Source: Shigella phage SFPB
Length of the DNA: 64,000 nucleotides
Sequence record: OQ031072
Reading direction: 5' to 3' (one strand)
Shown: positions 1-48,456 of the stretch, in pieces
Layout: each line of letters starts with the position of its first letter
How positions within the stretch are numbered: the stretch's first letter is position 1
The notes under the pieces: model-generated
Told to the model about the DNA's origin: nothing
Seen by the model: the letters and a program-made list of their open reading frames with translations, nothing else
Databases searched by the model: none
Program-made: the position numbers and the translations under genes

Positions 1-166
1 ATCCAGTTTTCTGCCAAGGTTCCCCCTTGTACCATGCAGCCATTGGGTAACCCATTTCACATACAACCTTTCCGTCTTTTATTTCAAAGAACTCATCAGA
101 TGTGAAATTTTCATTTCGAACTTTCTTGCCCTGTTTCATAGCTTCGAGAGCTTCTTCGTATGTCAT
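1..166 (-). CDS. small phage protein, N-terminal 55 aa only (3' end beyond window); DUF2829-like motif
   Basis: Minus-strand ATG at 166..164 overlapping upstream stop (ATGA); translation MTYEEALEAMKQGKKVRNENFTSDEFFEIKDG...; EAL-x-AMK-x-GKKVR resembles DUF2829-type small phage proteins from memory. Confidence 0.4.
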   Translation of the reverse strand, partial: MTYEEALEAMKQGKKVRNENFTSDEFFEIKDGKVVCEMGYPMAAWYKGEPWQKTG

Positions 167-372
167 TTTTGGTGTCTCCAAAATTCAATGTCAATAAGTT
201 CCTGTGCAATACTCTTCAGATTCCCTTTCAAGAAAACCTTTTCAGAGTTAGGTAGGCTTGCATTATCGATGAGTCTATTCATTCTGTCAAAAAGAGTTTT
301 CTTCCGATTCTTGATAGTCTCTTTTGAAGCACCTTGCATCATGGCGAGATGAGTTCTTCCACGATGGCTCAT
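163..372 (-). CDS. hypothetical protein
   Basis: ORF track 69 aa; start overlaps upstream ORF stop (ATGA). Confidence 0.4.
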   Translation of the reverse strand: MSHRGRTHLAMMQGASKETIKNRKKTLFDRMNRLIDNASLPNSEKVFLKGNLKSIAQELIDIEFWRHQK

Positions 373-569
373 AGACGTTCACCTTTAAGGTAGCCTGTCT
401 TATCCTTGATAATCTTACCTCCAGCAATAAAAATATCAACCTTGCGAAGATTTTCATTAGAAAGCTTGAGGTGCTTATGGCTACTGCAAATGATGATGCA
501 CATAGCCTCAATCTCACTTTGAGAATATCCAGCACATTGCAGTTGAACTTCAATTTCTGAAATAGTCAT
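369..569 (-). CDS. hypothetical small protein (possible HTH)
   Basis: ORF track 66 aa; weak resemblance to LuxR/sigma region-4 HTH; directly downstream of polymerase gene. Confidence 0.3.
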   Translation of the reverse strand: MTISEIEVQLQCAGYSQSEIEAMCIIICSSHKHLKLSNENLRKVDIFIAGGKIIKDKTGYLKGERL

Positions 570-630: not shown

Positions 631-3330
631 TTAGTGGACTTCAAGCCACGATTTACCAACTTTCCCTGCACCTGTGACCAATGTCTCTTTTCTTAGCCCA
701 AGGTTCTTAGATGCTTGACCATAATACCAGTCAGTTACTGCTTTCACATCTGCTGTCATGCTCTCTGGACATTCCCAGCTTGTTTCATCGTGGTAAGCAC
801 AGAGTAAGCGAGCACCAATAGCTGGTTTACGACCATTCAACTTCATCAAACCCTCATCAATCATACGACGACATGCAAGGTTGATTGCTTCATTCTGAAC
901 TTGTGCTTCTGAACCCATCAGCAAATAGTTCAAGAGTTTGTGTGGAGACTTACACCACAGCCAAGCCCCAGCAACCTTCACAAAACCACCTTTAGCTATT
1001 GCAGCAGTTTTACCAAACACCTCTTCAAGTGCTTTCTTAGTTGCTTTGAAATCAGCTTCCAAGTTGTCTAACAGTTTCTTAATCTTCGGTAAACGCACAA
1101 AGTAAGTCTGCTTAGTCAATGCACCTTCCTGAGTAGTTGCTGCTTTAATTGTTTTAGCAAACTTCTCATCACCTGCACCGAACAACAGGGCATAGATACC
1201 ATTCTTAGCTTTCTTACGCCCCTTGCTAATCTCATGAAGAAGATTCTCATCCTGAGTAGCACGACAAGTCAAGATATCTTGCTCATCATTAAGGCTGAAG
1301 TAGATACTGTTCAGAGTGTGAGCATCAGTCCCTGAGTAAACTACGTACAAATCGTTTTCAGAGTCGTAACGCAGATACTTGTCAATCTCTGGATTCAGAT
1401 ACTGGTCAAAGTGTTTACAGTAGTATCTTCCATCCTCTTGACGGACAAACTCAATCTCTTCTTTACCCTCTGTTACCGCTTTGGTGAAGTCTTTATCACC
1501 CATGAAGTTACAGAGTAGTACAAGCTGTGCAGAGTTCATATCAACAGATACTACGTTGGTTCCCTCTTCACAAATCCACACTGCCCTCATTGGCTCACCG
1601 TACACGGCAGCACCAGAAGGTACGTTTACAATACCATACTGAGTCATACGTCCAGTAGAAGTACCAAACACCATTGCACCTGCACTCAAACGACCATCTG
1701 GACGAATCTGGTTCAGCCAACCTTTCTCATCATCCTTTGAGTTCTCAATAGTCCTGCGTCGGTGCATCAAAGTATAGTACTTCGCAATCTTCTGTCCAAG
1801 CTCACCTTCGATTGTATCATAAGAAGACTCTGTAAGCTTTGGTGAAGTCCTAATCAAGCAAGGCTCAAGCACATCTGTGTACTTCTTAACAGACCAGTTA
1901 TGCTCAATGTAATAGACACCTTCATGCTCAATGTAATTCAATCCACAACGTTCAACCATCTCATCCCACTTAGGATGTTTGCGAATCATCTTTTTGTTGT
2001 CTTTGAATCTGCAAACCTTGATAGGACGACCATCAGAATCTTTTTTATAGTTCCAATCATCAGGAATCCAACCAACGGATTTTAAGTAATCCTTCACCAC
2101 AGCTACCTGAGTCATTCGTGAAACTTCAAACTCAATTGGTGTAAATGGTGCATCAATCAAACCAGTGTAGCGACTAGACTCTAATTCAAAGTGATTAACA
2201 ACGTGAACGTTGTAGTACTTCACAGTTTTCACAGTCTTAACTGGCTTCCAATCTTTACACTTCTTGCCAATCTTCTCATTCAGTTCATTACAAACTGCAC
2301 GAGCATCTTTCATTGCTACAAAACCTTCAGGGTACTCTTCTTTTGTGACCGTGTTAGTTGGAGTGTAGCAGTTGCGCTTCTCAACATTAAAAATCTTTGT
2401 AGTTGGCTTACCATACGGCTTGATAGGGTACTGCTTCAACTCACCTTCACGCATCTGTTCACGATACTTTGTCTTAGGGTACTTGGTAATCCTTTTCAAA
2501 CCATCAACGTGACCAAATGTATCTACATACTCGTTCCAAGACTTGGCAAATTCTTCACCTGTGACTTTACCTTTTGTCTTAATAGTTGGTGGAAGGTGTG
2601 GTTCAACCTCAGCAGCCAACTCGTTAGTTAACTTGTCAAGTTCTTTAACGTGGAACTGCATAAGTTCTACATCAGCTTTCCAACCGTTGATAGCTTGCTG
2701 ACTCATCCAGAAGGATGTTTCTTTAGCTCGCATGTAGGTTTCATAAGTGTCAACACCACACTTCTTAAGTTTGAGGTACTCATTATCAAGAGCACGTTTA
2801 GTTTTGGCGTTAATCTTAATATCTTCTACAACACGAGTAAGAATCTCTGCATTCCAGACACCCCACTCTTCAATCTCTGGTTTACGGACACCTACACGAG
2901 CACCCCATGCAGCTAAACCATGAGCACCTTTGTAACCTTTTGGCGTAGGTCTATCCATCCACTGTACGCGAGATTGGATAAGTGAATCCTGAAAGAAGTC
3001 ACCCCAAGGCTTACACTTAGTATTCTCAAAGTTCCACAGGTCAGGTGCAATGTGATTAAACACCCACCAGTCATAACCAAGACCATTGTGGATACAAAGA
3101 CGTTTAGCTTTCAGTGCAAACTCAACACCTTCACGCAGACCACCTTTGATGTATTTTGTATACTTGTGACCAAGAATAGGCTCATCAGTGAAAACCCACA
3201 CAGCAGGTTCATCACTGTCATCTTTATAGTCTGCGAAAGCCATTACGTGTGCTTTTGTAAACTCAAGGAGCAACCCATCAGTTTCTGTATCACCAACCAA
3301 ATGTAATTTTTCGAAATCTACATTGTCCAT
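631..3330 (-). CDS. DNA polymerase, family A, with 3'-5' exonuclease domain
   Basis: About 900 aa; N-terminal exo motif LVGDTETDGL; C-terminal YHDE motif; likely start MDNVDF at 3330 preceded by GAGGAG RBS on minus strand (track start 3345). Confidence 0.9.
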   Translation of the reverse strand: MDNVDFEKLHLVGDTETDGLLLEFTKAHVMAFADYKDDSDEPAVWVFTDEPILGHKYTKYIKGGLREGVEFALKAKRLCIHNGLGYDWWVFNHIAPDLWNFENTKCKPWGDFFQDSLIQSRVQWMDRPTPKGYKGAHGLAAWGARVGVRKPEIEEWGVWNAEILTRVVEDIKINAKTKRALDNEYLKLKKCGVDTYETYMRAKETSFWMSQQAINGWKADVELMQFHVKELDKLTNELAAEVEPHLPPTIKTKGKVTGEEFAKSWNEYVDTFGHVDGLKRITKYPKTKYREQMREGELKQYPIKPYGKPTTKIFNVEKRNCYTPTNTVTKEEYPEGFVAMKDARAVCNELNEKIGKKCKDWKPVKTVKTVKYYNVHVVNHFELESSRYTGLIDAPFTPIEFEVSRMTQVAVVKDYLKSVGWIPDDWNYKKDSDGRPIKVCRFKDNKKMIRKHPKWDEMVERCGLNYIEHEGVYYIEHNWSVKKYTDVLEPCLIRTSPKLTESSYDTIEGELGQKIAKYYTLMHRRRTIENSKDDEKGWLNQIRPDGRLSAGAMVFGTSTGRMTQYGIVNVPSGAAVYGEPMRAVWICEEGTNVVSVDMNSAQLVLLCNFMGDKDFTKAVTEGKEEIEFVRQEDGRYYCKHFDQYLNPEIDKYLRYDSENDLYVVYSGTDAHTLNSIYFSLNDEQDILTCRATQDENLLHEISKGRKKAKNGIYALLFGAGDEKFAKTIKAATTQEGALTKQTYFVRLPKIKKLLDNLEADFKATKKALEEVFGKTAAIAKGGFVKVAGAWLWCKSPHKLLNYLLMGSEAQVQNEAINLACRRMIDEGLMKLNGRKPAIGARLLCAYHDETSWECPESMTADVKAVTDWYYGQASKNLGLRKETLVTGAGKVGKSWLEVH

Positions 3331-3588
3331 TTTTACTCCTCTCAAATCATTCTGGATAATACCCTACAGCAATTTTCTTCAAAAAGCAAGTTGACAAACT
3401 ACTTGACAAGGTGTTAGTCTTTTCGAAGTGGGTTTTATCTTAATAGACTCCCTTTATAGATTAACTATACAGTTTCTTTAAAAGTCTTAAAAGATTTTTA
3501 ATAGCTTTTAAAAAGCTTTAAAGTTATATGTATAACATACATAAAGATAAGAGATTAAAATCTTTATAGATACTTAACAGAGGCAATC

Positions 3589-4029
3589 ATGCAGAGGATG
3601 TACGTTCACCCAGATATCAATAACCTTGTCCAAGCTTTAGAAAAAGTTGAAGCACTTTACATTGAGGCTCAGAAGGAGTATGCTTATCAACATCGTCGAA
3701 TGGTTGATGTTCAGCATGAGATAGAACTATCAAGTGGATATGACGAAGGTTTAAAGTGCTCGGTATTTGAGCACATGAAAGAGATATCTTCAGAAAGACG
3801 TAAAGCGAAAGACACAATCTTTTTGATAGATACCTTAAAAAATAAGTTGCAAAATGGAACGGACTTAGATAGTCTATCCCAACTGCTTCAGGATGCAGAG
3901 AATACATGGGACAGAAATTACTTCCCACGGTCTGAAAAAGGGCTTGACTTCTCTTCACAAGAAAGCTTAAGATTATCACGACTTACTATTAACAAAATGA
4001 GAGAGATTAAAGATGAAAACTGTAAATGA
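3589..4029 (+). CDS. hypothetical protein
   Basis: ORF track 146 aa. Confidence 0.4.
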   Translation: MQRMYVHPDINNLVQALEKVEALYIEAQKEYAYQHRRMVDVQHEIELSSGYDEGLKCSVFEHMKEISSERRKAKDTIFLIDTLKNKLQNGTDLDSLSQLLQDAENTWDRNYFPRSEKGLDFSSQESLRLSRLTINKMREIKDENCK

Positions 4030-4807
4030 GATTCTGGAAGAAAAAGGTATTGACGAAGCATTCATGCTGAACACCGTTGAGACTCTTGCTATCATTATGC
4101 GTAGCAACTCACTGTCAGGAAAATTTATCCCTGAATCTCTGCGTGTTGTAAAAAACGCTGTAGAGAATGACGAAGATTTCCGTAAAGAGGTTGAATACCT
4201 GCTGTCTAATAAGACTGATGCTCTGAAGACCATCTTCATTGGTGTTGATGCCTTTGCAGCATACATCTTTGATGAAATGTATTCAGGTGGATACATCCAG
4301 ATTACTGAGCAGGGTATTAAAGAACTTGATAACATGAGTGATGAAGACCTTCTGAAAGGTATTTGTACACCAGTTGCTGCTGTAATGGCATCGCTAGAGA
4401 AGCGTATGAATGATAAGTCACCACGTTATGCAAAACTGGATTGGGGCTTTGATGAAGTCTCTGACAAGGCAATTCAGTACGCTGATGAGACAATGAATAA
4501 GCTGTCAGAGATTACTAATGGTCTCTCTTTAGACCCTATTCAGGTTAAGGTAACTTCACTGTTAAACGCTATCTTTAGTATCATGGGTATCCATGCTTTA
4601 CTTGAAGTGTCAAAAATGTTAGAGTCTGACCCAAGCTTTGTAGAGAGCATTTCACAAGGTGCTCATACAGCAGCACTCGGGGATGTATTTAGCCAAACTG
4701 GTGCAGCAGTTCTTAGCACCAAGATTGCAATCAACTTCGGTGAAGAGTTTGTTCAGCAGTTAGAAGCAATGTCTGAGCGTGAACTCACTGGTTCTCAACT
4801 ACAATAA
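4013..4807 (+). CDS. hypothetical protein
   Basis: ORF track 264 aa. Confidence 0.45.
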   Translation: MKTVNEILEEKGIDEAFMLNTVETLAIIMRSNSLSGKFIPESLRVVKNAVENDEDFRKEVEYLLSNKTDALKTIFIGVDAFAAYIFDEMYSGGYIQITEQGIKELDNMSDEDLLKGICTPVAAVMASLEKRMNDKSPRYAKLDWGFDEVSDKAIQYADETMNKLSEITNGLSLDPIQVKVTSLLNAIFSIMGIHALLEVSKMLESDPSFVESISQGAHTAALGDVFSQTGAAVLSTKIAINFGEEFVQQLEAMSERELTGSQLQ

Positions 4808-47827: not shown

Positions 47828-48456
47828 CCTCCTACTGCGTTAATAACCACCTTGGCAGATTGGGATGTGATTGAGCCACCTACACCAGTTACAACACAAG
47901 AGTAAGTACCTTCATCATCAGCTTTAGAAGTCGGTGTCTTTTCATATGTTGCAGATGTTGCTGAAGGGATATCTACATCATCTTTCTTCCACTGATAACC
48001 AGTTGCACCAGTGGCAACAACTGAAAGTGTAAGTGTTCCACCCTCGTTAACAGTTTGGTCAGTTGGCTGCTGTGTAATAACTGGAGGTGTGATTGCATCC
48101 TTCAACTTTGCATTAAGCATGGAGAAAGGTTTAACCCTTGCAAGCCATTCACAGTAAATAGTGTCAACATCTTTACCGTTGATGATTGCATACTGCAAAT
48201 CCATGAAGAAGTCAGCAGTTCTCATTTGAGCACCTACAGAGTATAGGAGTTCTTCAGAGAATGGAACTGTGTAGCTTGGGGTGTAGTTGAAATCGGTAAC
48301 CTCAGCAATGTCTGACTCAGGCCACGGAGAGCTATATGTCAGTGGTAGCACAGCTTCTTGATACGTTCTGAAGTCGTATCTCTTACCAGCTTTAACATTC
48401 GCAATAAAAACTTTTACGAACTCTTTAAAATCTGGATATGTTTTTGCTTTAATCAT
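47824..48456 (-). CDS. protein with C-terminal Ig-like domain
   Basis: C-terminus ...TLTLSVVATGATGYQWKKDDVDI...GTYSCVVT Ig-like; N-terminal domain paralogous to next ORF. Confidence 0.45.
   Translation of the reverse strand: MIKAKTYPDFKEFVKVFIANVKAGKRYDFRTYQEAVLPLTYSSPWPESDIAEVTDFNYTPSYTVPFSEELLYSVGAQMRTADFFMDLQYAIINGKDVDTIYCEWLARVKPFSMLNAKLKDAITPPVITQQPTDQTVNEGGTLTLSVVATGATGYQWKKDDVDIPSATSATYEKTPTSKADDEGTYSCVVTGVGGSITSQSAKVVINAVGG

Follow-up and report, generated by a model that had tools for sequence, protein, structure and literature searches.

Shigella phage SFPB carries, at the left edge of the 64,000-nucleotide (nt) stretch of record OQ031072 analysed here (the window), a small gene that raises the question of whether a phage protein resembling Tad2, the Thoeris anti-defence sponge of the DUF2829 family, should also be expected to act like it. 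An initial annotation had described a minus-strand open reading frame (ORF) with an ATG at window positions 166-164 that stays open to the window edge, and had proposed from its N-terminus that the product is a DUF2829 protein and perhaps a Tad2-type inhibitor. That family lead is borne out by fold and by remote homology, while the score on the family profile falls below its cut-off and the contact signature of Tad2 is lost. As judged from structural modelling, the edge protein is a divergent member of the Tad2/DUF2829 fold, pared down to its core, and belongs to a separate family of ~60-amino-acid (aa) proteins. The reading favoured here, at a probability of roughly 0.45-0.5, is of a small counter-defence protein that would oligomerise and bind a ligand in a remodelled pocket, aromatic and acidic, whose specificity or binding mode would differ from that of Tad2 of phage SPO1. 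An anti-Thoeris label for the gene is not warranted on present evidence.

The reading frame itself is as first described. Positions 166 to 1 translate over 55 stop-free codons to MTYEEALEAMKQGKKVRNENFTSDEFFEIKDGKVVCEMGYPMAAWYKGEPWQKTG, the TGA of the upstream ORF (163-372) lies at 165-163 and overlaps the ATG, and no other ORF of this kind is present in the window. Window 1-4000 matches ~260 Felix-O1-like phage records and is 99.6% identical in DNA to Shigella phage Sf15 (Ounavirinae, Mooglevirus; Felix-O1-like), from which the complete gene was recovered as gp57, a 192-nt gene encoding the 63-aa protein MTYEEALEAMKQGKKVRNENFTSDEFFEIKDGKVVCEMGYPMAAWYKGEPWQKTGWSIFNETL, with the end ...WSIFNETL*. 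The last 8 residues (26 nt including the stop codon) fall beyond the window edge and are taken from Sf15 rather than from the window; because 55 of the 63 residues are visible, from the 5' 86% of the gene, the caveat that the ORF is a fragment is a minor one. The gene and its start signals are as follows:

1..166, minus strand: codons 1-55 of the 192-nt gene for a protein of predicted Tad2 core fold, orthologue of Sf15 gp57 (ORF; phrog_3474, E=4e-30; PF11195, 24.6 bits; fold matches)
163..166, minus strand: ATGA start/stop overlap with the upstream gene (from the sequence; left boundary of the insertion/deletion (indel) relative to phages without the gene)
176..179, minus strand: Shine-Dalgarno-like GGAG, 9 nt 5' of the ATG and within the upstream ORF (read from the sequence)

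The ATGA overlap suggests translational coupling. A promoter and terminator scan of the region gave counts no higher than the shuffled expectation; a sigma-70-like match at 11 of 12 positions (TTGACA-17-GATAAT; window 262-290, minus strand), inside the upstream ORF and ~100 nt before the ATG at 166, is a consensus match only.

The edge ORF is a real gene and not a chance one, since it is annotated as a coding sequence in Sf15, matches phrog_3474 with E=4e-30 (residues 1-55 to profile positions 4-58 of 64) and has homologs in 486 phage records. These homologs, found by tblastn, align over ~58-67 aa, are nearly all annotated as hypothetical, and come from T5-like, phAPEC8-like, T4-like and Felix-O1-like phages of Klebsiella, Escherichia, Salmonella, Citrobacter, Erwinia, Shigella, Aeromonas and Proteus; the family is a widespread one among virulent Enterobacterales phages. 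A word-indexed homolog search returned only 11 close relatives and an exhaustive hidden Markov model (HMM) search was needed, which found 232 members at E<1e-3 among 1.8 billion cluster representatives, most of them 58-75 aa long. Identities of 45-60% and a set of near-invariant residues are kept across these unrelated phage lineages. An alignment of 90 members shows A6, G13, F21, E25, E37 and W56 as near-invariant and K15, V16, H/N18, G32, I34, G39, Y40, W51 and G55 as strongly conserved, giving the signature EA..AM..GKKV.(H/N).(Y/N)F(T/S).(D/E)E(Y/F)...G.I..E.GY...W...GW(S)I. The edge protein reaches 110 bits on an HMM of these members and carries all of the signature residues F21, E25, E37, G39-Y40 and G55-W56, which places it within phrog_3474.

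In the T5-like phage cott162 the family gene lies in the left terminal repeat by A1 and A2 (locus L005, 5001-5198), and is therefore present in two copies per genome; in T5 this repeat is the pre-early, first-injected region responsible for host takeover. In Merlin (T4-like), phAPEC8 and Mydo it sits within runs of small unannotated early genes, and no known anti-defence gene lies near it in these three phages or in the T5-like phage, the neighbours being unannotated small genes. A few members (P0103 and P0081, each with two matched stretches, as well as P0116 and P0149) carry two tandem copies of the domain. Many others bear C-terminal extensions of 60-190 aa without a Pfam match (P0018, P0021, P0022, P0036 and P0144; phAPEC8 locus L007, 3977-4420), and in P0036 and P0144 the C-terminus is a basic tail of similar sequence, ...YKGKGHNKL(Q/K)K(R/G)KK.

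The kinship with Tad2 rests on the structural and profile comparisons. The sole Pfam match of the edge protein is indeed DUF2829 (PF11195, E=3.7e-5), at a borderline 24.6 bits against a gathering cut-off of 25 for both the 63-aa protein and the 55-aa fragment, with the alignment limited to profile positions 1-40 of 73. Within the family, 31 of the 90 members match PF11195 at E<=0.01, the precomputed Pfam annotation is empty for the closest database relatives, and an NCBIfam search with the edge protein gave no match. Searches of PDB sequences, whether started from the protein alone or from profiles of 12 or 90 sequences, reached Tad2 chains only at E ~0.13-0.2. Sequence search alone does not settle this kinship, which called for fold and profile-profile methods. 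The top PDB sequence matches, LIM domains and FlaI, were rejected as chance matches to the DG.VVCE.GY segment. Residues 24-40 (window 60-95, minus strand; DEFFEIKDGKVVCEMGY) are the source of these spurious matches and, in a large database, of matches to SRCR-like multi-repeat eukaryotic proteins (P0091, P0133), and such chance motif matches could mislead annotation.

By profile-profile comparison (hhalign), the 90-sequence family aligns with 48 relatives of SPO1 Tad2 over 34 columns covering α1-β1-β2, with a probability of 92.3% and E=5.7e-7, and a relaxed alignment extends this to 60 columns at a probability of 93%. An AlphaFold2 model made without templates for P0001, a 97%-identical member that differs from the protein of the window phage by I29M and I58V, has a mean predicted local distance difference test score (pLDDT) of 90.4 and a predicted template modelling score (pTM) of 0.75. 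Searched against the PDB with Foldseek, it finds Tad2 structures (SPO1, Myroides and Spt Tad2) in all of the top 14 places, at template modelling (TM) scores of 0.58-0.68, and everything else at a probability of at most 0.08; in a viral model library, the closest structures that are not family members bear the annotation DUF2829 or 'Thoeris anti-defense 2-like'. The helical proteins TadIV-1 (T4 vs.3) and Sequestin, considered as alternatives, have unrelated folds. On these models the assignment of a Tad2 core fold is solid, and the structural and homology part of the reading, namely a real gene, a Tad2 fold and remote homology, can be held with high confidence. A link between phrog_3474 and Tad2 was found neither in the PHROGs annotation nor in full-text literature searches; what is new is the recognition of phrog_3474 as a family reduced to the Tad2 core and lacking the functional Tad2 signature, the 'hypothetical' family itself being already known.

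SPO1 Tad2 (gp34.65, 89 aa; PDB 8SME, 8SMF, 8SMG and 8WJE), the founding Thoeris anti-defence sponge, shares with the edge protein a topology of an N-terminal helix followed by an antiparallel sheet (Foldseek TM 0.61-0.68) and an α1-β1 motif that reads FGEALEVLKQGMQV in the edge protein and YEEALEAMKQGKKV in SPO1 Tad2. Also kept are an aromatic residue at the position of W25 (F21), the tryptophan at W73 (W45) and the terminal W.I strand, with W56 for W85. Each is encoded by a small accessory gene that some close relatives of its phage carry and others lack. They differ in host phage, an enterobacterial member of the Ounavirinae against a Bacillus phage of the Herelleviridae, and in sequence, with an identity of 16-19% and, in the 63-aa protein, the β2-β3 insertion gone: residues 36-59 of SPO1 Tad2, which include α2, are without a counterpart, and a tight turn (K30-D31-G32-K33) joins β2 and β3, leaving only the N-terminal helix (EAL.AMKQGKKV) and a small antiparallel sheet.

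The best-conserved segment between phrog_3474 and Tad2 is helix α1, which Tad2 uses to interlock its subunits, and the most conserved residues of the family (F21, E25, E37, G39, Y40, W45/46, W51 and W56) fall in the elements that line the inter-subunit pocket of Tad2, that is, the β1-β2 loop, the end of β3 with the β3-β4 loop, and the segment before the last strand. It is because conservation clusters in α1 and in these pocket-lining elements, and because tandem two-domain members exist, that an oligomeric ligand-binder is favoured. In the proposed mechanism the edge protein would be made early in infection, would self-associate through helix α1 and would thereby form an aromatic and acidic inter-subunit pocket, which may sequester a small molecule, an immune signal of the host being the most plausible candidate, and would differ in specificity or binding mode from the pocket in which SPO1 Tad2 binds 3' cyclic ADP-ribose (3'cADPR, or 1''-3' gcADPR). 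We infer all three of oligomerisation, ligand binding and a counter-defence role from this pattern of conservation and from comparison with Tad2.

Several observations weigh against this interpretation, and the most direct concern the ligand contacts. With SPO1 Tad2 taken from the SPO1 genome, in a numbering that agrees with the published contacts (W25, N26, I63, T65, D67, H71, W73, S76, T78 and D79), W25 stacks on the ligand and N26 contacts its phosphates and hydroxyls. The residues R22, G24-W25-N26-G27-K28, W73, S76-Q77-T78-D79, D84 and W85 are invariant in true Tad2 relatives, and they align with the edge protein as follows:

Tad2 R22: N18 of the edge protein, H in most of the family (profile alignment)
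Tad2 G24-W25-N26-G27-K28: N20-F21-T22-S23-D24, followed by the invariant E25 (profile alignment)
Tad2 W73-V-P-S76-Q-T78-D79: W45-Y-K-G48-(gap)-E49-P50 (low-confidence alignment)
Tad2 D84-W85: G55-W56 (low-confidence alignment)

Only one of the ten contacts, W73, is identical and one, W25, is conservatively replaced; at N26, S76, T78 and D79 the edge protein has T, G, E and P, respectively. The register at I63, T65, D67 and H71 is uncertain, with T65, D67 and H71 non-identical in either plausible register. The β1-β2 loop motif R..G-W-N-G-K has thus kept its aromatic character alone, and the replacement of R22 by N18 and of K28 by D24, next to the invariant E25, turns this loop from basic to acidic, a reversal of charge near the diphosphate site of Tad2. 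Both tryptophans of the C-terminal motif are kept while its S, T and D are lost, a mapping that, like the others in the C-terminal half, comes from a low-confidence profile alignment and not from a coordinate superposition; position 50, Pro in the edge protein, is D or E in 38 of the 90 family members. The α2 insertion that is missing here makes the V-shaped dimer of Tad2, so that a tetramer may not form without it. The 63 longer family members contain no Acb4 or Sequestin sponge domain, PF11195 (in 6 members) and one SEC-C being the only domains found in them; in this they differ from canonical Tad2, and known sponges are often fused to each other (10.1101/2025.07.12.664507).

The record of characterised homologs bears on the mechanism in both directions. 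In its favour is the plasticity of the fold: Tad2 homologs inhibit Thoeris types I, II and IV, the cyclic-oligonucleotide-based anti-phage signalling system (CBASS) and the pyrimidine cyclase system for antiphage resistance (Pycsar) (10.1101/2025.08.24.671296). None of the 18 published tested homologs belongs to phrog_3474 when their sequences, together with controls, are compared, and all the active ones except Tad2_79 carry GWNGKG and W..S.(T/S)D..DW. Seven short or divergent homologs, Tad2_69, 72, 75, 78, 80, 81 and 84, inhibited none of the systems tried (10.1101/2025.08.24.671296). HgmTad2/AcrIIA7 (PDB 8KBI) and ModTad2 (PDB 9EIB) likewise keep GWNGKG and W..S.(T/S)D..A.DW, which the edge protein lacks, as it does the long insertion that provides HgmTad2 and MoTad2 with a second pocket for cyclic dinucleotides or cyclic UMP (cUMP). 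The nearest comparisons among the tested proteins are Tad2_80 (73 aa) and Tad2_79 (80 aa), which score 14.4 and 8.6 bits on a canonical Tad2 HMM that, like the family HMM, was built in this analysis, and on which the edge protein scores 12.5 bits and active homologs 70-119; at 5.1 and 9.3 bits on the HMM of the family, recognisable by its F-T-x-(D/E)-E motif, both are non-members. Tad2_80 has a minimal architecture without the long insertion, like the edge protein, and inhibited nothing it was tried against, whereas Tad2_79 retains the Trp and, after the second Trp, a T at +3 and an acidic residue at +6, and inhibits type I and type IV Thoeris. Because so divergent a protein is active, divergence alone does not exclude sponge activity, but activity in a protein lacking the Tad2 ligand contacts would have no precedent.

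The surroundings of the gene bear on its role. Between the DNA polymerase (upstream) and the DNA ligase, overlapping small genes of the same orientation follow one another, with the edge gene in third place; the two before it are:

163..372, minus strand: small gene immediately upstream, 69 aa, orthologue of Sf15 gp56, phrog_5180 (ORF list, PHROGs, Sf15 annotation)
369..569, minus strand: next small gene upstream, 66 aa, orthologue of Sf15 gp55, phrog_4230, with an ATGA overlap with its neighbour (ORF list, PHROGs, Sf15 annotation)

Homology to the window ends exactly at position 163 in Sf16, Sf14 and Moogle, as it does in other close relatives. A three-way alignment shows that gp57 and the following gene, gp58 (47 aa, no family match), form a precise 312-bp indel relative to Sf16, whose alignment breaks right after ...CCAAAAATGA. 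The edges of the indel are the start/stop overlaps ...AAAAATGA and ...CGTGA (ATGA and GTGA); the gene downstream of the cassette starts with GTG where the cassette is present and with ATG where it is absent; in Sf15 the stretch bearing the indel is 3845-4166 of locus L001, which adjoins window 1-166. Searched at the DNA level, the cassette is found with both genes in 18 records; EcSzw, SUSP2 and PC79-13 carry just its gp57 half, and Felix O1 is one of many records with just the gp58-like half. The two genes assort independently, since each also occurs without the other. At DNA-detectable similarity gp57 is present in ~18-26 records, against 260 that share the flanking polymerase region, which makes it a sporadic accessory gene of a small minority of the lineage. 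Among the Sf phages, Sf15, Sf17 and Sf18 have the gene and Sf14 and Sf16 do not. Such precise gain or loss and sporadic presence would be the accessory behaviour typical of counter-defence genes, as would the pre-early location in T5-like phages and the placement among small early genes elsewhere.

Some variation nearby was observed in passing. The polymerase region (window 631-3345, minus strand) matches KPS64, ESh20 and Henu12 in two or three pieces, where these phages have an annotated HNH endonuclease gene and the window has none, which looks like a homing-endonuclease insertion polymorphism; the polymerase ORF is 904 aa long if extended to a TTG start, against 899 aa as annotated in Sf15. 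Shigella phage vB_SflM_004 gp067 (P0008; MK295205.1, ~47947-48222) is an 83-aa chimera in which 36 N-terminal aa, MTYADVIQQLHDNCYTPELIQEMCIVVMPSKFVKAF, similar to the N-terminal part of window ORF 369-569 (minus strand), precede the Tad2-fold protein from R17 on, and from its sequence it looks like a deletion that fused gp55-like and gp57 genes with loss of helix α1.

Against this background the other explanations of the gene can be weighed. The first, which corresponds to the initial annotation's proposal of a Tad2-type inhibitor, is that of a canonical Tad2, a homotetramer that sequesters 3'cADPR, blocks ThsA activation and so inhibits type I Thoeris. The shared core fold, the PF11195 match, the two aromatic pocket positions kept as F21 and W45, and the sporadic distribution, which recalls that of tad2 in SPO1-like phages, all speak for it, as does the activity of the divergent Tad2_79 against type I Thoeris. 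It is nonetheless improbable, given that the invariant G24-W25-N26-G27-K28 and S76-Q77-T78-D79 are missing, that the dimer-forming insertion is absent, and that the score of 12.5 bits on the Tad2 HMM lies far from the 70-119 bits of active homologs. T22 and P50 stand where Tad2 has its polar contacts N26 and D79, and in HgmTad2 the mutants W21A/N22A and S90A/T92A/D93A, at equivalent sites, abolish binding. Li et al. found the gcADPR site conserved in ~99% of Tad2 proteins, so that the edge family falls outside this group. An anti-CRISPR of the AcrIIA7 type is very improbable, as AcrIIA7 is the same protein as HgmTad2, a sponge for gcADPR and cyclic dinucleotides, for which Cas9 binding was never demonstrated; the authors argue that DUF2829 proteins act against Thoeris and not against CRISPR. 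A chance or decaying ORF without function, which the very short length, the absence from many close relatives and the 'hypothetical' annotations might have suggested, has next to no likelihood and is effectively refuted by the conservation data, with 45-60% identity and near-invariant residues over T5-like, T4-like, phAPEC8-like and Felix-O1-like phages; the GGAG sequence, the start/stop coupling and the high-confidence fold prediction argue in the same direction. The hosts Escherichia, Shigella and Citrobacter carry CRISPR types I-E and I-F and not II-A, a further point against the anti-CRISPR.

A different possibility, less likely than the favoured reading, is that the Tad2 core fold has been re-used for something other than a sponge: a small acidic protein that binds a host or phage protein, for example to inhibit a host enzyme or a defence effector during early takeover, with the aromatic and acidic patch serving as a protein-protein interface instead of a ligand pocket. 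Binding to host proteins is a common mode of action of small phage proteins made early or pre-early, those of the T5 first-step-transfer region among them. The conserved surface, acidic and aromatic, is un-Tad2-like, many members carry unrelated C-terminal extensions, and short divergent Tad2 homologs have been inactive in sponge screens, all of which would fit such a role; against it, all characterised proteins of the Tad2 fold are small-molecule sponges, conservation is concentrated in the pocket elements and the oligomerisation helix, and the gene neighbourhood suggests no partner, the adjacent gp58 assorting independently. The favoured reading, an oligomeric ligand-binding protein with a remodelled pocket, may also be carried further, into a proposal that we regard as speculative and rather unlikely: that the ~60-aa F-T-x-(D/E)-E family is an unrecognised minimal branch of the Tad2 fold, an oligomer held together by α1, whose remodelled pocket takes a ligand targeted by no known sponge. 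Candidates for this ligand would be an immune signal of Enterobacterales that is not yet assigned, or else a messenger that is positively charged or not a nucleotide.

Among the phage sponge folds known, that of Tad2 is the most versatile. If the edge protein binds a signal, its 63-residue bare core, with strictly conserved pocket-lining residues of its own, would define a minimal sponge unit and indicate a specificity beyond those so far covered; if it binds none, the family would offer a clean case against reading a 'Tad2-like domain' label as an anti-Thoeris function. Hundreds of therapeutic-type coliphages and of Shigella, Salmonella and Klebsiella phages carry the family, which in T5-like phages lies in the pre-early region, and Sf15, Sf17 and Sf18 against Sf14 and Sf16 provide ready-made, isogenic-like comparisons. 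Should the family prove to be an unrecognised branch of the fold, it would represent a widespread counter-defence gene of T5-like, T4-like, phAPEC8-like and Felix-O1-like phages.
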